Source of the DNA: Mytilus edulis
Lineage: Eukaryota
Reading direction: 5' to 3'
Length of the DNA: 64,000 nt
NCBI RefSeq assembly: GCF_963676685.1
Contig: NC_092346.1
Span: 38,688,001-38,752,000, forward strand
Shown: piece by piece, positions 24,901-39,900 of the stretch
How positions within the stretch are numbered: the first letter of the stretch is position 1
Layout of the letters: each line of letters begins with the position of its first letter
Program-made: the position numbers and the translations under genes
Notes under the pieces: generated by a model
Told to the model about the DNA's origin: nothing
The model's database searches: none
The model's input: only the letters and a program-made list of their open reading frames with translations

Positions 24901-27900
24901 TCTATAAAAAACTGTCCGTCCCGGACAGGGAATGATCGAACATGATAAATTTAAACACAATAAAAACATGATATAAGTACATATGTCAAATATAAAATAC
25001 AACTAACAATAATAATTTTCAAATGTCCATTCTATAATCTGAAATCCTGAATGTCTCTACTTCATCTCTGGTTAAAATCCACCCCCCAACCCCCAATGTC
25101 TATCTTCCAGTTACATTAACTCAAACATAATCTTCATCTCCGCACTCTGTGTTGCCATGTCCTTTGTAGTAGTTTCTTTTTGGGTCTCTTTCTCAGATGT
25201 TTCGGGCACCTGTATGACATCTTCTTCAGTTGTTTCCCCTTCTGTGTCGCTTCCCTCTATCACTACCACTGTTGTCTCTGTATACTCTCCATTCTCTACC
25301 GACTCTGTCACATCTTTTACCGGCTCTGCCACATATATTGGCAATGGTTTTTCTTCAATAGGTGGTAAGGCGGCATAAAGCTTTTTGAACAAGTAGGATC
25401 GGGCATCCAATAGGCACTCAGTTCATATACTGTTCCCTCAGGCAGAATTGCCTTTTCTACTTTCTTTACACCACCTATGCCATCAGGGATGACGGAGCCT
25501 GAATACATTTGGCTGCTTCTTCTTGCCTTTTCTCGAATACATAAAACCCTGGCAGCATCATCAGAGGTTTGGTATAAAGGGGGCGGTGCCATGAATCTTT
25601 TCTTTTCGTCCTTCAAGTCATCCTTTTTTGGGAGGATGAGTGTTATTTCTTTCCTCCGACAGCTTTTCTTCTTCTTTCTTGCTTTTGGCTTTTTCAGTGC
25701 TTTTTGGTGTTTCTATTTTCCTTTTCTTAGGAGTAGTAGGTAGAGGGGAAATTGGTCTGACCGGCGATTCAAAAAGTGCCATCAAATTCTCTGGTAACTG
25801 TGGTAAGCTTTCATCGTCATATCCCAAAGTGATAGGGACAAGGGACTTTATTGGTGAAAAGTTCATCATACTAGTACATTTCTCTGGGGACTTTTCAAAT
25901 TTCTGGATCAATGGCGCCCTCTTCATTGGTGATACCGGGATGACCAATGTTGGATTCGACCCCGGTTTTTCATTGTTATGTTTAGTTTTCTTTTCTGCTG
26001 CTTTTACTTGTTCTGCATGTCTTGCCTTTTCGTGTTCCTTCATCCTGAAGGCCAGGCTGCTAGAAACCTTATAGGAACAATATCTACATTCAACTATGGT
26101 TTTGGAATGCTTATTCCTCACATGTCTCATCATTTTCTCCCTGAACAAATATTCAGCACCACAGTGCCTGCACGTAAACATCATCTAAATAAAGAACATT
26201 TTGTCTTTAGAATAGGAAATGAAAATACAATTTAAATACCTTTGACCAGGAGGATCCCATCTTGCTTGCTTGTGTTACTAATTATTTAAGTTGAATTTTA
26301 TATTATCTTTGTTTCAGGTACATCTGAGTTAGTTTATGAAATATCCAACAGTATGCAGTAATCATCAGACCTGTTGTATATTGTATTAACTGTGCGCCTC
26401 TTCTTGCCGACCTCTTCTTATTTTCATATGAATCGGAGTTCCTCCAGACACTTGTAAAAAACAAGAGAATCAAAGAAGCCAGATTATTTAATTTCACTTT
26501 CAGATATATTGATGATGTTCTTTCCATAAACAATCCGAACTTTTCTGATTGGGTTCCATTAATATATCCCCCAGAACTAGAGATTAAAGAAACAACAAAC
26601 ACGGCTTCCTCCGCCTCATTTTTAGACTTATATCTAGAATTTGACTTACACAGTCATCTCAGTACCAGAATCTAAGACAAACGAGACGATTTTAATTTTG
26701 AAATCATAAATTTCCCCCACCTTAGTAGCAATATACCAACTTCACCTGCATATGGGATATATATTTCCCAACTTATTCGATATTCAAGAGCTTGCAGCTC
26801 CTACTCAGACTTTGTAATACGTCATCAGTGTCTGAGTAGAAAGTTGATGAAACAGGGGTATGTCAAAGAACGTCTCGTTCTTTTTCTAAAAAAGTTCATC
26901 GGAAGGTACCAAGACCTTGTTGATAAATATTCCGTATCAACTTCTCAAATAATACACGATGGTCTTGATGTATAGATTCTTCGTACTGATGTTGTTTATC
27001 ATCTTAACAACGTGTTTTATAGTTCTTTCATTTGTCTTTGTTCTATTATTAATATTACTTTTACTGTTGAATGGTTTCATGCGATATCCGTTTCACGTGG
27101 CTCGGTACTTATACATCTCGTCAATGTGTTTGTATTGGCTTTCATTTTTTTGTGGTTTGTTTTGTATTTGCGACTTTTTGTATTTCTTTTGTTCTTATAA
27201 CGTGACTCTGTACTTTAAAAGATCCCGTCAGTATGATATTGTTCTATTATATGTCATTATACTATATTTCTATTATGAATTACAATATACGTTGAACCAC
27301 AAACGTCAAAATCGTTCAATTGCGTAGTGGTATTAACTATTTTTGGATTCTTTTTTTTTTTTTTTTCAACATAAATAAATATTTATTTCAAATATTGGCT
27401 TGTTACAATATCATTCAAGAGTCCAAGCTGCTCCCGATGTTCCCTGTTACAATCCACTAATCACTCAGGGTAGTGATTAGTTGCAAAATACATATTACAT
27501 TTTTTACATCATATATATATATATATTAGATAATATCGATTAATCACGTAATATGTTTTCTAATAGTTGCTAAAACATTACTTTTAACCTTCAAACATAC
27601 TCTTCTATTGAACTCATTGCGAAAAATTGAGTAAACATTGACATTTTTTGTCTTTTGATCAGATATGTAGTAGGCTTTATAAATTGAAAAGCCCACAATT
27701 GTTAAAAAATAGTTTAAGTCAAAATATTCTTCTTCAGAAGTTTTATATCCAAATACTAAGTGTCTTAGTTTTACTTTAAAAGTTATTTTACTGTTATTTA
27801 AAACTTTATTTATTTTATTCCAAAAAAGTTTTAAATACGGACACAGTATAAAGAAGTGATCATAATCTTCTTCTTGTGTACAAAAATTACAAGAACTATT

Positions 27901-30900
27901 GTTTACAATTTTCCACCTGCATAAAAGTTTCTTTGTAGGTAGAATATGTTGTAGTAATTTCCATCTAAAAATTCTAAGTTTATTTTCTTTTAAATATTTG
28001 AATAAAAATTTATATAGATAGTTTTGATATAACACATCATCTATATCAAATATACGCAGCCATTTTTTGGGTCCAATAGCTGGTTCAATTTTTTTATTTA
28101 TCAGAGACTTATATACAAGTTTATTTGTTAATGCTTCTAATTTTATAGGTAAACCATCCAATATAAATTGGTTTCTTTTTATATTAACAATACTTTTTAT
28201 AGAATTTTCCGATTTTAAAATTGCTGCCCAGTCTTTTGGTATAGATTTCTTAACTAAATTAATTTCAGCCATCCAGTTTGATTTATTTTTTAGTTTATTT
28301 AAAATTATGTCTTGAGAAATACAACCTTTTTCATCTATGATATCATTTACATAAATAAGATCGCTTTTAATCCAATATTTTAAAAATATAGCTTTATTTT
28401 CAAATTTAATAAATTTATTGTTCCATAATATTTGTTTTCTTATATCTGTAAATGTTTCTGGTTTTTTTGTTAGACCTCCACCAGTTAATTTCCAACATTT
28501 AATAATATCTTTATAAAATTCTGGGATTTTTTCAATGCTTTCGTCTGTCTTATCCCCACTGTTTGTTTGAAACACTAACCAGTTTGACCCAAAATTATAA
28601 AAATAGTGTTGAGGTATAATTGTCCAACTTCCTTCACAATCATTTACTAATCTTTTTACCCACATAGCTTTTAGAGCGGTGAAATAACTTCTGATATCTA
28701 TCATATTCAAACCCCCCTTTTCATATGGACTAATAATTGAATTTCTTTTTACTTTATCTGGTTTATTATCCCAAATAAATTTAAAAAAACTTTTTTCTAT
28801 TTCTTTTAAAAATTTCTCTGAAACTCTGCAAGCAGATCCCACAAAAGTAAAAATGGGCACAATTAATGTTTTAATTATCAAAATTTTTCCAAAAATAGTA
28901 AGATTTCTTTTTTGCCAAGAATAAAATAATTTATTCATCTTTTCAATCTTATTTTCCCAATTTAGTTTATCACATTCCTCCGTACAATGCCCAAAGTAAA
29001 TGCCAAGAGTCTTAACTGGTCCATTGCTCCAGTTGATTCCCTCAATTTTGTCTTTACAAGATTTAAGTTTTCCTACCCATAACCCCTCTGTTTTGTTTCT
29101 ATTTAATTTCAGCCCTGAATAAGAACCAAAAATTTCAATTTCATTCATAGCTACTTGAACATCATATTTAGAACAACAAAATAAAGTAGTATCATCTGCC
29201 AGTTGCGAAATTTTTATAGTATGATTTTTGCAATCTAATTTGACTCTGATACCTTTAAAATCAGTATTGCTTCTTAATCTGGAAGCCATAATTTCCACAG
29301 ATAAAACAAATAATAATGCAGATAAAGGACACCCTTGACGTATACCTCTTGTGTTTTTAAAGACCTCAGATATCCAACCATTATTCATTACACATGTTTG
29401 AATATCACTATATAAAGTCTTAACCCATCTTATAAAAGATTCATTAAATCCAAAATGTTTTAAAACTGAAAACATAAAATTCCATTCTAGAGAGTCAAAT
29501 GCTTTAGAAAAATCAACAAAGACTATAGCCCCCTCAATTTTGTATAAATCAGTAAAATCTATAATATCTTGTATCTGTCTAAGATTAAAACCAATAAATC
29601 TATTTTTAACATATCCAGTCTGATCTTCTTTAATCAGTTTTGGTAAGATTTTTTTCAATCGTTGTGCTAGAGCGTACGATAGAAGTTTCATGTCAATATT
29701 TAAAAGAGAAATAGGACGGTAATTATCTAGTGACAATGGATCACCTTTTTTAAATAATAGCGTTAATACACTGGTACGCTGTGAATATGTAAGTGTTTGA
29801 TCTTTGTATCCAATATTTAGAATGTTTACTACTATGAACTTTAAGTTATCCCAAAATTTTCTATAAAATTCCACGGTTAAACCGTCTAATCCAGGGGATT
29901 TATTAAGTTTCATTTTATAAATAGCATCTGAGCATTCTTCTACTGTAATATCCCCATCGCAAATTGATTTATCATTTTTATCCATTTCTTTATCGAGTTT
30001 TGTCTCAAATATATATTTGTCGCTTGATGTTTTATCAGGGTTTTGCGTCGAATATAACTTTTTATAGTATTCTCTAATATTACTAAGTATATCACTTTGA
30101 TCCGTTAAAATCTCACCATTTTCCCCTTTTAATTTATTGATTGACTTTTTTACCTGTCTCTGTTTTTCTAAACCTAAAAAGTACGAGTTATTTTTTTCCC
30201 CAAATTCAACCCATTTCTCTCGTGATCTTATTTGAGCACCTTTAGCCTTTTGTTCATAAATTTTGGCAATATTATTTTCAAGTTCTTCAATATCTTTATC
30301 TAAAACGTTATTCTCAGATTCTTGTTCATCTCTTATTTTCAATTTTCTTTCTAATTTTTTTTCAAGAGTTCGTAAGTTTTCTCTTTTAAATTTTGCTTTA
30401 GATTTACAATAAGCTATAGTTGCCTCCCTTATCTTTATTTTAAATATATCCCATGCTAAACCAAGGTTTTTTAAATTACGATTACCCATAAAGCAGCTTT
30501 CCATTTCTTGATTAACTAATTGTATGTAGTCATTATCTTCTAATATAGAATTATTTATTTTCCAGTACCCCCTACCCTTTTCTGATGCACCTGTTCTAAA
30601 CTTCATAAAAACACTTTGATGATCCGTAGAATCAATAACTGCAGGTTTAATTTTACAACATTCTACTAGTGGTATGAAATCTGAACCTATCAGAATCATA
30701 TCAATCCTACTTGCCTGTGATTTATCTTTTCTTCGCCAAGTATATTGTTGTTTATTTTTATTTGAATATCTCCAAAGGTCTGTTAAATTATTTGTTTTTA
30801 TTAAAGATTTTAAACTATTTACTGATTGGATATTTTTTACCTCTGAACGAGCATTTTTCCTGTCTATCGCTTTCATCGTATCATTGAAATCTCCCCCCAT

Positions 30901-33900
30901 TATCGTAATTCCTATCCCTTGTTCTTTTAATGTATTATTTACTTTTTTGAAAAATATATTTCTATTACTTTTACAATTAGGTGCATATATACACATTAGT
31001 GTAAAAACGCTTTCATCAATTTCTACATTTAAAAGAATTAATCGTCCATCTACATCGTTATGTTTATTTATCAACTTATAATTCAGTGACTTTTTAATGA
31101 GAATAGCCACACCCCTACTAGAGGTTGTTCCGTGACTGCAAAATATATCAAAATTTGAATTATTTCTTATTTCTGTTTCTATGTTTTCATTAAAATGAGT
31201 TTCTTGTAGAAAACAGATAGAAGTATTTTGACATTTAATCCATTCAATTACTCTGTCTCTTTTAACTTTATTTTTAGTACCATTTACATTTAAACTACTT
31301 AAGTTTATTAGAAATTTAGATGCCATTTCAAAGTATAGTTTCATATAATTGTATTATTTCCTCACAAAACTGTCCATGCCTGCAAACAATACAATTAAAA
31401 CACATGTTTATAACAATCATATAGAAATCAACAATGTATATCACTCTATTTCTATAAACATAAAAAGTACAATTCATCAAGCTACCTAAAATTACAGGTA
31501 GCAAATAAAACACGCTACCTGTGAATACGGCATTTAATTTACCGGTCTGCTTTGACCTTGTTTTGTAAAAATCAATAGACAATAAAATTGACACTGAAAT
31601 AATCAACATCCACGTGTGATTTGTTACAGCCTTACAATGACTATTTGAATGGATATATCTGGTTGATATGCGTGTCTTATTCACATTATGTGTGTGCATA
31701 CTTTTATTTGAAAAAGTGAAATGGAGAATGTAAACAAATTTAGGATAATAACGTATGTCAACTACATCGTTTGCTTTTAAAATTGTGTTGGCTATGCTTA
31801 CTAAAAAAGTAAACTGTTCGCAAGATATTTTACTTGTATCTATTAGGAAGTTTAAAAGAATATTCAATAGTGCATATCGTGGATTTATTACATGTACCGC
31901 AACATTCAAATATACTTCAAAAATATATTTTATTGAACTACAAATACAGTATAATCTGTATGGATGAATACGCTGACATTGAGGTAAGTATTTATACATT
32001 CTAAACAGTGAAAAATTGAATATTAATATTGTATTCAGTGTTCTACTTAATGTCAACAATCGTTCATTTACTATTAATAGCACACAGCATGTGTATACTT
32101 GCGCTAAAAATAGCGCAGATAAAAACCCACTTACTAGTAGTATGATAATTATATAAATAAATATTCGCTGTTCGATTTTTTTCAGCGATTGACCAATAGT
32201 AAACACAATAGTTGTAAATAATATTAAAGCAATAATGCACATCGTGCATACATGCATTTCATGAGATACTTCATTGAAATCAAAAATAGTTGGTAATATA
32301 TTTCTTTTTGACATATACATCTCACACTTTATATATCTTTTGTTATAGTTTAGCAAAGCCTTAAATAGAATACAGGTTTTGAGTTTGCATTTATAAAAAC
32401 ATGCACATGAGTTGCATTTATGACCAATAGTCAACTTCACAATCAACAACATCAACACATTGAAGTTAACTCTTATAAAGAGCTGAAAACTTTTTTTAGT
32501 ATTCATTTTGATTTTTTTTTTGGTTTATATTATACATGTATATAGATAAAAGATCATTGTACTATAATATTTACATTAAAATATTTTACATTGTCTATAT
32601 GACTACAATTATTAAGCTTTGGCCTTCTTGGGGCCATTATTACCAGTAGTTCTGTCATGTAAGTTCTCTGGGGGTGTAGGTGGGGTATGATGTTGAGACA
32701 GATTCCTGCGTTGACTTTGCGGTGTGTTCATAAATTTGTCTATATATGATTGTGCTTTGTCAGAATTGCTTGAACTTGTCTCATTCATACTAGCCTTTAC
32801 CTTTCCTGGTTTTGCTGAATTTGTCTTATTTGCATTGTTTGAACTAGTGTCTGTTGTTTTTGTATTTCTACCTTTTGGTTTGTTTGCCACATTTGTTTTT
32901 GGGTTTAGTTTCTCAGTCTGTTCAGTTGACTGAGAATCATCTACTGTAACAGATTCATCTGTGGTCACTATTTGTTCTTCTTTGTTGCTTACTACTTGGA
33001 ATGCATTAGGACAATCCATCATTTTGTGGCCTGGTAATTTGCATTTTCTACACACCCAATCATTTGGGCAGTCATACACAAAATGACCCACTTGCAAGCA
33101 TTTATAGCATGGTTTTGTATTGCCATCACTGTAAGAGCCTCTGTTTTCAAATTCAGGTTGCCCACTATGCATTACTATGGCCATGTATTTGCCTATTTGT
33201 AAACTTCTAGCTATAGGTTTGTCTAACAACTTACTAATAATAATTCTGTCTCCAGTTTGACAGTTGGTGATTTTGCCTTTTACCCTTAACCGTTTTCTAT
33301 TAAGACTCTGTATGTCACAACCTTGTAATGTAAGGGCTCTATGTATTTGACCATCATCAGCTGAAATCGGCACATTTTTCACTATAATTCTGATGGTATC
33401 TGGTTGTAAATTGCCTGGATTTCGGGGATTTTGAGAGTGCAGGGGAACTTGTCTGCCACGCAAGTTCATTCCTGTCACTAACAGAGACAGTTTGTCCTCC
33501 TCGTTATCCATGTAAATGCTCCACATATCACGGATTCTCTGAATACCTTTTATCCGTTCAGCTGGAATTTTTGTATCAATGGCGTTGTATATTTCTATGT
33601 TCGTAAGCCATAGGGGTCTCGGTGGTTTAACAGAACCAAATACATCGGTATCTGTCAGAAATATGGGTTTTATATAGTCACTTGGATCATGTGATTCATC
33701 TGTAGTATAATCAGCCACAACTGTTTTGTTTTGGTTTGTGTTGGTGTTTGTATTTGACAGTACATCAGAATAGGACGCCATATTTGTTTTGTTTTGATTT
33801 GAAATGTCTACCTCGGGGTCTAACAACTCTTCTTGCATACCTTGCATGTCTTCCATAAGACGTTTAAAACGATCTTTTGACATCTTTTTAACTAATGCCT

Positions 33901-36900
33901 CAATTTCTGGTTCCATCATGTAGTTTAACTTTAAGAAAATTATATTTTTTCTGGAGCGGTATCTCACTAAGCCTTAGCCATAAAGGGACATCACATTTTT
34001 GGATTCTTATAAATTCTATATATAACTTTTGGACTAGGTTAAATCTCGGTCTATTTCTTAAATTTATTCTTACATACTTTTGATTTTTTAACCCTGTATG
34101 CTAACATTCCCATGAAAATTTTAAAATTGTTTGTACGCACATTGAACGACAAATTAATGTGACGTATAAAATTTTCTGACGTCAGACACTCAACAAATGT
34201 GTTCGTAGATAGTAGATGTTTTTGTGTTCTGTTAAATTGTTCCTTTTAATATTGTTAAACGATGATGACTGATGTACCCATATTTTGACTATTATATTTA
34301 TTGTGTCTGTTTATTTAACGCATCAATGTAAAAATATCGGAAATTGATGAGACTGTCATTAAAGTGAGAGGGTTAGCGCTATAGAACCAGGTTTAGTCAG
34401 GAATATGACAGTTTTTGTCCATTCGTTTTTGATGCGTTTTGTTATTTGATTTTGCCATGTGATTATGGAATTTCCCAATTGATCTTCCTCTAAGTTCAGT
34501 ATTTTTGTGATTTTACTTTTTAAGACACATGGGGCATTTATTACTCATTCCCCTGTGCATTCCAGTGAGGCAAAAACTAGGACACAGACGCAACTCATTG
34601 CCTCTAGAGCTTTTCTATACCATTTAATGATTACTTCATAAGTTATCTTCATATTGCCAAATGAATAGATTCTGGGTACAAAGTATATGCTGCAGTTTAC
34701 ATCTAAGTACCAGTTTTCCTTATACCAAGTGTGCTATGTACACTAATATTGTTATACTTTATAAATATCAATATAATATGATATAATGATAAGAACATTT
34801 TTATTGAAAATAGAACTCAAAAGGGCATTATTAGTTGTTATTGGGTAAATAATATGAAATTAGTTTGAGCTTTTCATGTCTTTCAGGCAACAGTATGCTC
34901 AGTGCTTTGATTATTTTTGTCTTCGTTTAATTTGTTTTAAATAACCCAGTTATTAACTTCTCGGTAATAGGGTTTTAAAAGGTCGTGATGAACAACCTGT
35001 GACCTTGAAGATGGATTCTTCTGAATTTTGTAGGTCACATCAGACAGAATTACTATAAAGTATGGGCCATCCCATTTTCTTTGAAGTTTAGGACTAATGT
35101 TTTTGACCCGAGTAGGGGTATACAACCACACTACATTCCACTTCTGGTATGAATGTTGATAGCTCTTAATATCATATTGTTTTTTCTGATTTTCACTGGC
35201 ATTTACCATATTTTGTGTTGCTTTCTCATGTACTTTCCACATGTTTTGCGTTATCTGAATCATATGTTCATTTACTACTTGGGTTTTATCGATAAAATCT
35301 TCGTGTTGGGGATGGGGGCCATAAATTAAGTCAATGGGGAGTTCAATCTCTCGACCAAGCATCAGTTTACAGGGTGAAAATTTTGTTGACTCGTGTACTG
35401 ATGACCGGTAGGCCATGAAAGCCCATGGCAACTGTTCATCCCAGTCCTTTGATTGGAACAGACATATTTACTAAGTATTTCTTCCAAACTGCGATTGAGT
35501 CGCTCCACCAGCCCATCACTTTGAGGGCGGTAAGGAGTGGTTCTCGTTTTGTCGATACAGAGTCGGGTACATAATTCTTTAAATAATGCCGACTCAAATT
35601 GTCGTCCCTGGTCTGTGTGGATTTGTCTGGGAACACCAAATCTACACACAAAGTTATTTGCAAAGTTATCTATAATAGTTTTGGTCTCCATATCAGGCAT
35701 GGGATACCCTTCAGCCCATCTGGCGAAGTAGTCTGATACTATCAAGGCATATTTATTGCCCTTCTTCGATAATGGAAATGGCCCTATTATATCTAGAGCC
35801 ACGCGTTCCATTGGTGCTCAAACATGATATTGCTTCATTTTACTCTTGGTCCTTCTCGGAGGCTGTTTTCTAGAACTTCACATGGTACAATGCTGTATCC
35901 ACTTTAAAATGTCTGTTTTGAAATCCACCCAATAAAATCTTCTCCGGACACGAGCAACCGTTTTATGTATGCCTAAATGTCCTGACGTTGGATTATTGTG
36001 TAATAATTGTAAGATATCTTTTGTCCAACAACTGGGAACCAGTAACTGGTTTACTGTCACATTAGTAATTGTGTCAAGCCATTGCCTGTTTAAAACACCA
36101 TTCTCAAAAAACAATACGGTCCTATTGAGACCAATACCGTTTGAATATTGGGTTTTGTATTGCTATGTCCCCCCCATTTCGTTTTATCTTTCGACTCGGT
36201 TTTCATCTGATATAATTAACCTAGGATTTCGTCAGATTTTTGTGCCGGTATTATTTCTTCAGTTGTCTTTTGTTGAATCCTTTGCGTCTCATCTTCAGTA
36301 TTTTGGTCTTCTATATCGTCATTTGTCTTTGCCATTCTAATGCACCCTTCCAATTCAGTATTAGTAAATTCTTTTTGGTGTTGTTTATTGCAGTGGCTAC
36401 ACGGGTAGCATGGTCTGCGCGATAGCCCATCAGCATTCCCATGAAGTCGCACAGGTCTATGTTGAACCTCAAAGTTTTTAAAACGTCTAACCATCGGGCC
36501 ATTTGACCTTCTGGATTTTTGAACCATAATAACCAATTTAAAGCACCATGGTCTGTGCGAACTAAAAATGGACTGCCATATAAATAATGGTGAAAATTTC
36601 TTACCGCAGAAACAATTGCAAGGAGTTCTCTCCTTGTCACACAGTATTGTCTCTCAGGCTTACTCAGCGATCGACTATAATAAGCTATTACACTTTCTTT
36701 TCCATTAACTGTTTGGGACAATACAGCACCAAGACCATACCCACTAGCGTCCGTGTCTAAAATGAAAGGTTTTTTCATGTCGGGATAACCCAGAAGTGGT
36801 GAAGTTGTAAGCGCGTTTTTTAGTTCCTGAAAAGCATTTTCACAAGTTTCAGTCCAATCATACTGAACGTTTTTCTCTGTCAGTTTGTGCAATGGCTTTG

Positions 36901-39900
36901 CTATAGTGGCGAAGTCTTTAATGAACCGTCTGTAATAAGAACATGTACCCAAGAAACTTCTTACTTCTTGAATGTTTTTGGGAGATGGCCAAGATTTAAC
37001 TGTTTTGATCTTTTCAGTGTCTGTTGAAATGCCTTCTTCCGAAACTATATGACCCAGAAAAGAAACCCTTTTTTGAAATAAGTGGCATTTTTTGGGAGCC
37101 ACTTTTAAACCATTAGTGGCTATTCTGCCTAAAACTTCATCAAGTCTCTTTAAATGCGATTCGAAGGAATCAGCAAATATAATTATGTCATCTATGTAAA
37201 TCAAACAAGTCTCCCAGTTTAACCCTGCTAGTACGTACTCCAATAGTCTCTGGAATGTGGCTTCACCATTACATAGACCCATGGCCATGACATTGAAATG
37301 GAAAAGACCTTTAGAAGTTGAGAAAGCAGTTTTCTCTTTGTCCTGGGGGTCCATTTCGACTTTGAAATATCCACTCGATAAGTCCAGCACAGAAAACCAT
37401 TTAGAGCCCCTCAATGCATCTAGGGAATCGTCTATTCTTGGAAGTGGGTATGAATCCTTGATTGTCTTACTATTTAAGATTCTAAAATCTGTGCATATTC
37501 TCGTAGAAGAGTCTTTCTTTTTCACAAGAACGAGACTTGTTGACCAAGGACTTTTAGATGGTTCTATAATGCCACAATCAAGGAGTCGTTGTACCTCCTT
37601 GTCGGCTTCCTCTCTTTTATGAAAAGGTAATCTTCGGGGTTGTAATTTAACTGGAGTAGCCGTTCCTGTGTTTATCTTATGTCTAATGGCTGTTGCTCTA
37701 CCCAAGTCATCTTTTGTTTTTGAAAATGTACCTTTATGTCGTACAAGTACTTGTTTCAACTCATCAACCTGAGACTCTGAAAGATTTGAACTACTTCTCT
37801 CAAACATATCTTGTAAATTCAAAGGAATATCTTATGAGTTTTCTTTAGTTATCATCTGTGATACTTTACAAGTATCTTCATATCTTTGAGTCATGTCAAC
37901 TGACTCACAAATAGCAGTACAAGTTGACTTAAATACCGTTTGTACTTCATCTGTCAAGTTTGCTATCCTCAAAGGGACATGACCTTGACTTGGGTCAACT
38001 AAAGCCTTAGCAATCAGGAGATTACTAGTATGATTAGACATTACTGGTTCGACAATTGCGTCCATGATGTGTGATGAGTCACCTTGAACATTTGCATTGA
38101 CAATCATTTCAGTATGGGCAGGAATGGTCATTTTTTCATTTATGGAAACCTTAAAAACTGAAGGCATTTGACTCAACTTCATGCAATTTATTTTGATTCC
38201 ATTTATGGTTAATATTCCAAAGCCTAAATCAAGGTTACATTTATTTTTATGTAAAAAGTCATACCCCAGTACAGCTGGTGCATCAATTTCTGCTACAGTA
38301 AATTTTTGTGTTATCGAACTTCCCCCAATCTTCACAGGTAAGTCAATTGTTCCTAAGGTTTGGATACTGTCACCATTTGCCATGCAAAGTTTTCTTTTGT
38401 TTATCTTTAATAATGATTTTACTTCAGGAGGAAAAGCATCAAAATTTCTAGGATGTATAATACAGAGTGTTGCTCCTGTATCAACCAAACAGTTTATGTT
38501 AATATTTGAAATAAAACATTTTATAAAAAGACTTGTTTATTTTCATTAAATTGGTAAATATTAGACCTAACATCAAAAATGTAGTGCTGGTGACTGGTCC
38601 GCTTCACCAGCATTTTCTAGTTTCCCTGTCTATCAGTCTGGGTACCCTGTGTATATTGTGAACCATAATTAAACCTTTGCTGTGTGTTGGGTGATGAGCA
38701 GTACTGTACAGTATTATTTTGTCTATCATTTTGGTATTAACGACAAGTTTTTTTCATATGACCTTTAATGCCCCAATAGAAGCAGGTAACACCAGAGTAG
38801 TCATTAGACTTTTGAAATTTAGCCATGTCATCTAATTGATGACTCATTTTTGCAATCTGTCCTAAAATGTTATCTTCATCATCTATTTGTTTAAATGGGG
38901 TTTCATGTTGCATTCGAATAGCTGGTTTTGTGTTAGTAAGCCTTTTGAACTATTTGTGACCCTTTTTGTATCTTTAGTCGGTTAGAAGTCTTCGTTTCGA
39001 TTCTAGAGCCTGATAAGCTATCAAATTGTCAGGTTATGATAATTTTGTACCTGTTTTGTTGGTATGTTGATATTCAACTACACTGGTGACTATGTGTGTG
39101 CTTCACAGAGAAAAATGTACCCAAGAAAGGTTAATAATCAGTTTTATGTCCCGACAAGATTGTTGCGGTAAACATAGTTTTTCTGTCTGTTCGTCCATCC
39201 GTTCGTTCTTCAGTTACACGTTGGTTTACCTTTGCGTTTAAGATGATTTCCTAAAAAGTTTCAAGTCGATTCTTCATGAAATTGTGTACCGTACTCTTTA
39301 TTTATCATGCAATGGACTATAAACTGTGTAAAAATGGGGGGAGTTCCGTCGAAAATGGAAATAAGTGCCGATCGGGACATCCCCGTCTCAAAGACATTTC
39401 ATTGTTACCACCAGTCTACGTAAATAGATCTTGTTCAAAGTATCTGAGTAGACTTTTAGTTAAATCCAGCTCTACATCCCCGGTGGTTTTATAAGAGTTC
39501 TAGGAACTTGATCGATATGAATATGTGTTGGATAAGTGAAATACTGAAAGTTTGGTTGAAACTACTGTTCTGAAAAATCGAAAAGTTCAAGTCCTCTTAT
39601 GGTCTCAAAATGGTAAAGAAACGATATGGGTTAATGACACGAAGTCATCACATATTGATCATTAAATGTCACACAAAAATAAATCTAGAGCTGACGACAC
39701 AAACTTCGATAGAGCAGGAACTTCCCACTTACAGAAAGCCATCTCTTGATTGCCTCAAACAAAACAAGAACTATCGAACCGAAGGGCACTGAAAAATGTC
39801 CAAATATCTAATTCAAACCTAAAAGGTTTAATCAGGAACTTATATGTGTCTGATTTAATAACACACGAATCGACACAATACCGACTTAAATGGATCCTTT

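Follow-up and report, generated by a model that had tools for sequence, protein, structure and literature searches.

The 64,000-nucleotide stretch of the Mytilus edulis genome analysed here (contig NC_092346.1, positions 38,688,001 to 38,752,000; hereafter the window) contains a full-length long interspersed element (LINE) on the minus strand, at 27353-33994, flanked by 14-bp target-site duplications (TSDs). Between its open reading frames (ORFs) 1 and 2 lies a third ORF on the same strand, here called the middle ORF, which is kept open by selection although its amino acid sequence evolves at a nearly neutral rate. In 5′ to 3′ order, the element comprises the following features:

33995..34008, no strand: 5′ TSD, 14 bp
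33920..33994, minus strand: 5′ untranslated region (UTR), very short, 75 nt
33971..33978, minus strand: small hairpin with a 4-nt loop at the 5′ end of the element; two closing pairs covary across families
32612..33919, minus strand: ORF1, 435 aa, with CCHC zinc knuckles, intact (Pfam zf-CCHC, E 4.9e-7)
32507..32611, minus strand: leader of 105 nt from the ORF1 stop to the middle-ORF AUG, its last 20 nt A-rich
31328..32506, minus strand: middle ('bridge') ORF, 392 codons, frame under selection, amino acids near neutral
27544..31344, minus strand: ORF2, 1266 aa, intact, with apurinic/apyrimidinic (AP) endonuclease, reverse transcriptase (RT) and zf-RVT (Pfam)
27353..27543, minus strand: 3′ UTR with AATAAA and poly(A)
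27339..27352, no strand: 3′ TSD

Judged by its endonuclease, RT and C-terminal Cys/His region, its poly(A) and the variable TSDs of its kind (11-17 bp in 15 of 25 copies with both ends defined), the element is an L1-group LINE. The best match of ORF2 among sequences in the PDB is human L1 ORF2p (E 5e-98, residues 13-907), and ORF1 is 99% identical to a protein annotated from Mytilus edulis. The CCHC knuckles of ORF1 are a trait of the Tx1 clade; the ORF2 tree contains no named Tx1 references.

A middle ORF of this length is not expected by chance. Read in its two remaining sense frames, the 1267-nt spacer meets 48 and 37 stops. We also simulated 9,000 spacers with Markov models of orders 1-3; their longest stop-free stretch over all six frames was 68-75 codons in the median and at most 195, and none attained 392. 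An earlier note on this DNA, made from the letters alone, had described a full-length element with TSD, poly(A) and intact ORF1 and ORF2, and between the two a same-strand ORF of 392 aa at 31328..32506 with a CAAAATG start, very unlikely to be fortuitous at that length; this description is borne out throughout.

The same layout recurs across a whole clade. We assembled 126 loci, namely the window, 100 loci found in the same genome by ORF1 similarity and 25 metagenome loci, and located both the ORF1 end and the ORF2 start in 76 of them (in 31 others the ORF1 end was broken or absent, and 19 lacked an ORF2 start). L1-group elements are typically bicistronic with a short inter-ORF spacer, yet the shortest spacer among the 76 copies measured 645 nt (range 645-1,800 nt), and in 55 of them a single same-strand ORF spanned at least 80% of it. 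Clustering of the DNA at 88% gave 30 families, 26 of which include a copy with such an ORF, 202-526 codons in length (25 families from this Mytilus genome and one from a metagenome contig); the four without a full middle ORF are single copies, locus L091 and three metagenome contigs. ORF2 identity among 22 families ranges from 44% to 85%, and the ORF2 tree covers this clade plus one outgroup contig. Of 20 extra loci chosen by ORF2 alone, eight combined ORF2 with a full middle ORF and with an ORF1 hit or frame; the rest, truncated or broken, mostly still had an open frame reaching ORF2. The metagenome contig with the complete three-ORF layout is L134, whose ORF2 is 60% identical. A search with a distant ORF2 returned this clade only and no short-spacer relative. 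The layout thus holds clade-wide, and the frequent stops or indels in sister families that the earlier note had named as grounds for refuting it were not seen.

Two observations at the margins of this census may be recorded here. A distant relative with a 39% identical ORF2 (L140:1091-1820 and L141:1460-2060) has a spacer of 650-800 nt that consists largely of CAA and TCA triplet repeats and has no stops in any frame; it holds successive ORFs, the last of which apparently ends just past the ORF2 AUG, and neither copy has a single continuous frame across the spacer. In L036 and L037, relatives of the window family, the middle ORF and ORF2 match that family, with no ORF1 match upstream within the fetched stretch, which may reflect either a 5′ truncation or a replaced ORF1.

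The frame of the middle ORF is under selection. From the 842 substitutions in seven subfamily comparisons, about 60 stops would be expected under a neutral model, and 4 were seen; in the pairs concerned the copies' frames are open, so these 4 lie at the end or out of register. Shared indels, counted after merging neighbours within 45 nt, were multiples of three in 37 of 38 cases in the middle ORF versus 2 of 5 in the non-coding leader, and without merging the figures were 12 of 14 for the window versus L036 and 14 of 23 for L050 versus L053. Because most of the compared copies were open to begin with, and because the merge rule favours multiples of three, the family census is the less biased measure. 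The start codon, too, bears a mark: the first Met lies on average 7.5 codons past the upstream in-frame stop, versus 34 expected (p 3e-9), which suggests that it is selected.

The protein that this frame encodes is not detectably constrained. In all seven subfamily comparisons the ratio of nonsynonymous to synonymous substitution rates (dN/dS) of the middle ORF lay between 0.78 and 1.54, in none differing from 1, versus 0.16-0.29 for ORF1 and 0.10-0.21 for ORF2 of the same pairs (ORF2 values for L050/L053 and L090/L088 are left out, as those copies have no alignable ORF2). Pooling gave 0.97 over 1,545 codons, and 0.92 (about 0.81-1.06) in a larger pool of 3,956 codons in which some pairs share a member, compared to 0.13-0.22 for ORF1 and ORF2. 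Over these 3,956 codons mismatches were spread evenly across the three codon positions (489/526/537), as they were within conserved windows of the middle ORF (50/50/46), and changes between hydrophobic and polar residues were not suppressed. A two-class model placed 95% of the sites at an omega of 0.84, with no constrained class and a fast class of 5% that may be alignment noise; for ORF1, it placed 68% of the sites at 0.01. Comparison of proteins linked only 5 of 325 family pairs and comparison of DNA 27, none being linked by protein only. Database searches gave a similar picture. Pfam returned no family for the window's middle ORF at E 1, nor for the 25 others at E 0.01. A homologue search yielded no named homologue and a single match, a 222-aa piece with 87% identity, and a search of 1.84 billion representatives yielded only two, one being a query row and the other a partial match of 70 residues. 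The Atlas search peaked at a score of 0.78, with nothing at or above 0.9 and recognition like that of shuffled sequence, so that its best match is no more than a lead, and a single-sequence AlphaFold model was uninformative (predicted local distance difference test score, pLDDT, 41.7).

What is conserved in the spacer lies at the DNA level and is read in different frames. In all seven pairs divergence is lower in the spacer than at four-fold sites of the ORFs on either side, and its local level at codon positions 1 and 2 correlates with that at position 3 (rho 0.23-0.31). The earlier note had overlooked the conserved DNA motifs, which supply a reason for the spacer to exist; those in the window are:

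32118..32127, no strand: kB/Rel-like near-palindromic 10-mer, 4 nt from a MEF2-like site
32104..32113, no strand: MEF2-like palindrome CTA-W4-TAG
32071..32080, no strand: second CTA-W4-TAG site
31981..31989, plus strand: antisense 5′ splice-donor-like site GAG/GTAAGT

The names kB/Rel and MEF2 are our own assignment, presumed from matches to the consensus sequences only. The composite of the kB-like 10-mer and CTA-W4-TAG at a fixed distance of 4 nt occurs in 9 of 25 families and at 0 per kb in ORF2. Among 256 palindrome types CTA-W4-TAG ranks first, with 27 occurrences versus 1.4 expected, in 17 of 25 families; 17 of the occurrences lie in ORF frame 0 and 10 in frame 1, but none in the third frame, which would turn the TAG into a stop. 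Similar palindrome pairs occur once in L134 and twice in L136. The antisense splice-donor-like site is present in 10 of 10 near-clade representatives, and the most enriched 7-mer of the spacers, found in 10 of 25 families versus 0.9 expected, is complementary to a 5′ splice donor; sense splice donors are scarce (0.03/kb versus 0.31/kb in ORF2). As the families share ancestry, these counts by family are not independent events. Splice donors are also a feature of primate ORF0. From their sequence, we read the motifs as a putative internal enhancer and antisense splice donor. NF-kB and MEF2 sites co-occur upstream of antimicrobial genes of the fly, which we mention as an analogy only (PMC3807682).

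RNA data came from three runs of a related organism, about 6% of each, in which 229-286 reads could be placed. Over the middle ORF, coverage was 0-2.6x in two runs, nearly all with the first mate on the plus strand, and nil in the third; reads of the opposite orientation lay over ORF1. The strandedness of these libraries is not recorded, and their depth is too low to define starts or splicing. Sense splicing of the spacer as an intron was considered and rejected, given the scarcity of sense donors and the lack of a splice joint in these shallow reads.

Further spacer words are enriched among the 25 families, namely GTAAACA (16 versus 6.6 expected), which we take to be forkhead-like, TAATCCA (11 versus 3.6) and AGTGTGA (7 versus 0.7), along with CAGCTG and, on both strands, TGTAHATA. 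In L082, L083 and L084, ORF2 contains a match to the kB-like/MEF2-like composite on its antisense strand.

The two ends of the middle ORF are placed with some precision. In 24 of 26 families its AUG comes 19-117 nt after the ORF1 stop, often preceded by an A-rich tract, and of 25 mini-ORFs in the leaders 23 end upstream of this AUG; in the window, the 105-nt leader holds four AUGs opening ORFs of 1, 1, 10 and 13 codons. At the other end, 24 of 26 families have the stop no more than 50 nt from the ORF2 AUG, and in most it falls past that AUG. In the window it ends 17 nt beyond the first ORF2 ATG, which accordingly sits inside the 3′ end of the middle ORF. The spacer contains 36 AUGs in the window and 18-49 across the families, too many for a ribosome coming from ORF1 to reach ORF2 by scanning. 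The proteins of L1 act in cis, and translation of ORF2 is thought to need an upstream ORF that ends nearby.

Taken with the selection on the frame, this geometry suggests that the middle ORF is probably selected for being translated, and the reading we favour, with some reserve, is that it serves as a ribosome bridge across a regulatory spacer, for which the act of translation would matter and the product hardly at all. Ribosomes would re-initiate at the AUG shortly past the ORF1 stop, elongate across the spacer in one stop-free frame, terminate at or just past the ORF2 AUG and re-initiate there, such that ORF2p would be made in cis from the full-length RNA. With a relay of this kind, from ORF1 via the middle ORF to ORF2, the element could retain an extended internal regulatory module for which its short 5′ UTR has no room.

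Several points weigh against this proposal. That the middle ORF is translated is itself something we infer, and two re-initiations after long ORFs would be required, which are rare. The position of its stop close to the downstream AUG is a trait of termination upstream ribosomal binding site (TURBS)-type coupling, but the TURBS core UGGGA is absent from the 110 nt before the middle-ORF stop in all 25 families searched. AUGs precede the middle AUG in 13 of 24 leaders, and in L134 a gap of 90 nt separates the middle ORF from ORF2. The biases of the stop and indel counts have been noted above, the omega of the main site class is slightly under 1, and no spliced antisense read was found in the three shallow RNA runs. 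Finally, hydrophobic segments summed over 16 families number 42 by prediction versus 29.9 ± 4.8 in simulations, and in 19 of 26 families an N-terminal stretch reaches at least the 80th percentile of hydrophobicity, often with Lys runs after it. Its hydrophobicity is above that of shuffled, stop-free versions of the same T-rich segment (mean z 0.69 ± 0.18, versus 0.23 ± 0.07 internally). This excess and the recurrent N-terminal stretch imply that the product may not be fully inert.

It is conceivable, albeit unlikely, that this stretch acts as a signal anchor, through which the signal recognition particle would dock the translating element RNA at the endoplasmic reticulum (ER), with the remainder of the protein as a sequence-free tether; XBP1u RNA is targeted to the ER in a comparable fashion. 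Such a role would be compatible with a ribosome bridge, and besides the hydrophobic excess (42 segments versus some 30 overall) it could account for the first 45 codons being more conserved than the remainder in several pairs. However, the DNA of the N-terminal segment is simply U-rich in 20 of 26 families, and the other frames score high as well (9 and 14 of 26), so that its hydrophobicity is largely explained by U-richness, with a small in-frame excess left. Moreover, its dN/dS is 0.87 (about 0.57-1.35) and the hydrophobic-polar exchange 0.99, L038 and L134 have no such segment, and the window family reaches only the 68th percentile.

Selection for the frame only would be accounted for equally well if the open frame kept the spacer covered by ribosomes, so that the RNA escapes nonsense-mediated decay or a similar surveillance, and if ORF2 were reached by internal entry; an internal ribosome entry site has been reported upstream of mouse L1 ORF2 (PMC4072516, PMC3592465). 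This explanation gives no reason for the stop to sit so close to the ORF2 AUG, and the spacer shows no strong RNA structure along its length (z -1.44; mean window z -0.3 to -0.6 in six families). We therefore regard it as improbable.

The earlier note had offered two explanations, a frame kept open to deliver ribosomes to ORF2, which fits our results, and a membrane, envelope-like or viroporin-like protein, which does not. In its favour, the ORF is long, maintained and properly started, and the window copy has five hydrophobic segments and many Cys, as the note had described; these, however, do not rise above the background of composition, with 3.6 ± 1.6 segments (p = 0.27) and 5.7% Cys (5.1% observed) in stop-free simulations of the same DNA. 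A dN/dS of about 1, as found in all seven comparisons, was the very outcome that the note itself had set against such a protein. An envelope-, viroporin- or fusogen-like product could still evade this verdict if the average of 1 mixed purifying with positive selection, and the 5% of sites with high omega might be taken that way, but a constrained site class is lacking, the mismatches of conserved windows are flat, segment number (0-6) and length (202-526 aa) vary such that no topology is conserved, none of the 26 proteins has a Pfam family, and the homologue and Atlas searches gave only the results listed above. The recurring peptides 'FLPMLFL' and 'YLP', considered as a possible protein motif, proved to stem from motifs in the DNA, which one family reads in one frame and another family in another. 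An envelope- or viroporin-like reading is thus not supported, and we hold it to be very improbable.

Just as improbable is an N-terminal extension of ORF2, joined to it by programmed frameshifting or readthrough, as the overlap of the ORFs in most families and an in-frame fusion in L093 (L093:1846-4632) might suggest: ORF2 lies in the +1 frame in some overlaps and in the -1 frame in others (offsets 4, 7 and 34 versus 8, 11, 17, 23, 29, 32 and 38), and in several families a gap takes the place of the overlap. ORF2 starts with a Met of its own shortly before the endonuclease, the fusion results from a 25-nt deletion absent from all three sister copies (L094, L197, L198), and the NPGP motif of 2A-peptide LINEs, which carry DxExNPGP before the endonuclease, is missing from all 25 middle ORFs examined.

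Like L1 and Tx1 LINEs, such as human L1, Xenopus Tx1 and the bivalve L1-Tx1 elements (PMC10294476), the mussel clade has ORF1 followed by an ORF2 with AP endonuclease, RT and C-terminal zinc-binding region, a poly(A) and TSDs of 11-17 bp; what it adds is the third same-strand ORF of 202-526 codons in a spacer of 645-1,800 nt, compared to spacers of 18-580 bp with a median of 63 in the mammalian L1 elements surveyed (PMC4072516). A related case is the megabat L1, whose 445-bp spacer lowers retrotransposition about 26-fold, removal of the spacer AUGs lowering it a further 3.3-fold (PMC4072516). There, too, a long spacer persists despite its cost and AUG-initiated spacer ORFs aid ORF2-dependent mobility; these, however, are several small ORFs in one lineage, whereas the mussel clade has one continuous frame, a spacer up to four times longer and 26 families. 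Coupling of termination and re-initiation is known from SART1, mammalian L1, caliciviruses and influenza B, where the upstream stop likewise adjoins or overlaps the downstream AUG; the upstream ORF of those systems encodes a needed protein, while the mussel middle ORF apparently exists for coupling alone and has no UGGGA (PMC5972666). Primate ORF0 with its antisense promoter is a further case of an extra ORF in L1, with signs of antisense transcription signals inside the element, but it is antisense, 71 aa long and upstream of ORF1, while the mussel ORF lies between ORF1 and ORF2 in sense orientation and is about five times longer (PMC5203782).

The envelope and small fusogen ORFs of long terminal repeat (LTR) retrotransposons are also third ORFs with hydrophobic segments; the mussel ORF differs from them in lacking a conserved topology, conserved cysteines and, apparently, a conserved fold, and in its near-neutral evolution. 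We found no description of a sense third ORF between ORF1 and ORF2 of L1/Tx1 elements in the full-text literature, a scope outside which most subscription papers fall, and an annotation in Repbase or Dfam may exist. Where third ORFs are mentioned in the literature consulted (PMC5203782, PMC10294476, PMC11203168, PMC4072516, PMC7140322, PMC5972666, PMC3807682, PMC5006619, PMC4494074, PMC5009743), they are primate ORF0 and DIRS-1.

How ORF2 is translated in L1-type elements is still unsettled, and the megabat study left open why long, costly spacers persist (PMC4072516). The mussel clade amounts to a natural experiment on these questions: 26 families hold several hundred codons open as one ORF although the residues encoded there drift at roughly the neutral rate, and the coupling that would follow such long ORFs can be tested directly in an animal system. 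The clade is also an unusually clear example of selection that apparently acts on translation and not on the product, and as such it bears on de novo gene birth and on the tolerance of random hydrophobic polypeptides. In annotation, such ORFs will resemble orphan membrane proteins. More speculatively, and with considerable doubt, one may picture a deep clade of molluscan LINEs that moved its transcriptional control into a kilobase-scale inter-ORF module of kB-like and MEF2-like sites, perhaps inducible by immune signals or stress. The price would be a sequence-free ORF, several hundred codons long, that relays ribosomes by two re-initiations and whose hydrophobic N-terminus may also dock the RNA at the ER. 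Such ORFs would form a class of genes selected only for start, stop and openness, and would have given rise to dozens of independent, near-random long polypeptides.

Many, although not all, members of Tx1 have a target-sequence preference (PMC4494074), whereas the mussel clade shows no target-site specificity: inspection of 24 junctions from 30 copies revealed no common flank. The window copy is inserted in a high-copy repeat (27200-27338 and 34009-34150), for which empty-site reads are common; target-specific insertion was nonetheless rejected, as this flank is not common to other copies.

The 5′ UTR measures about 78-100 nt in families near that of the window and about 215-220 nt in L074 and L080. 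A conserved 5′-terminal motif of 45 nt, located at 33950-33994 on the minus strand, recurs at the 5′ ends of 16 other copies and contains the small hairpin, whose YAMG-type loop we take to be a YNMG tetraloop. RNAalifold gave no consensus structure for the 17 5′ ends, and an Rfam scan of the element gave four sub-threshold matches, taken as chance, and none for the 5′-terminal motif. The hairpin is paired in 91% of 34 cells, with both sides changed in 9.

Elsewhere in the window, pieces of a Gypsy-like LTR retrotransposon, split into several ORFs, occupy 34937-38549 on the minus strand, with frames that we presume from their motifs to be protease-, RT/RNase H- and integrase-like. On the plus strand, 26340-26990 holds what by eye appears to be a remnant of another RT-encoding element.

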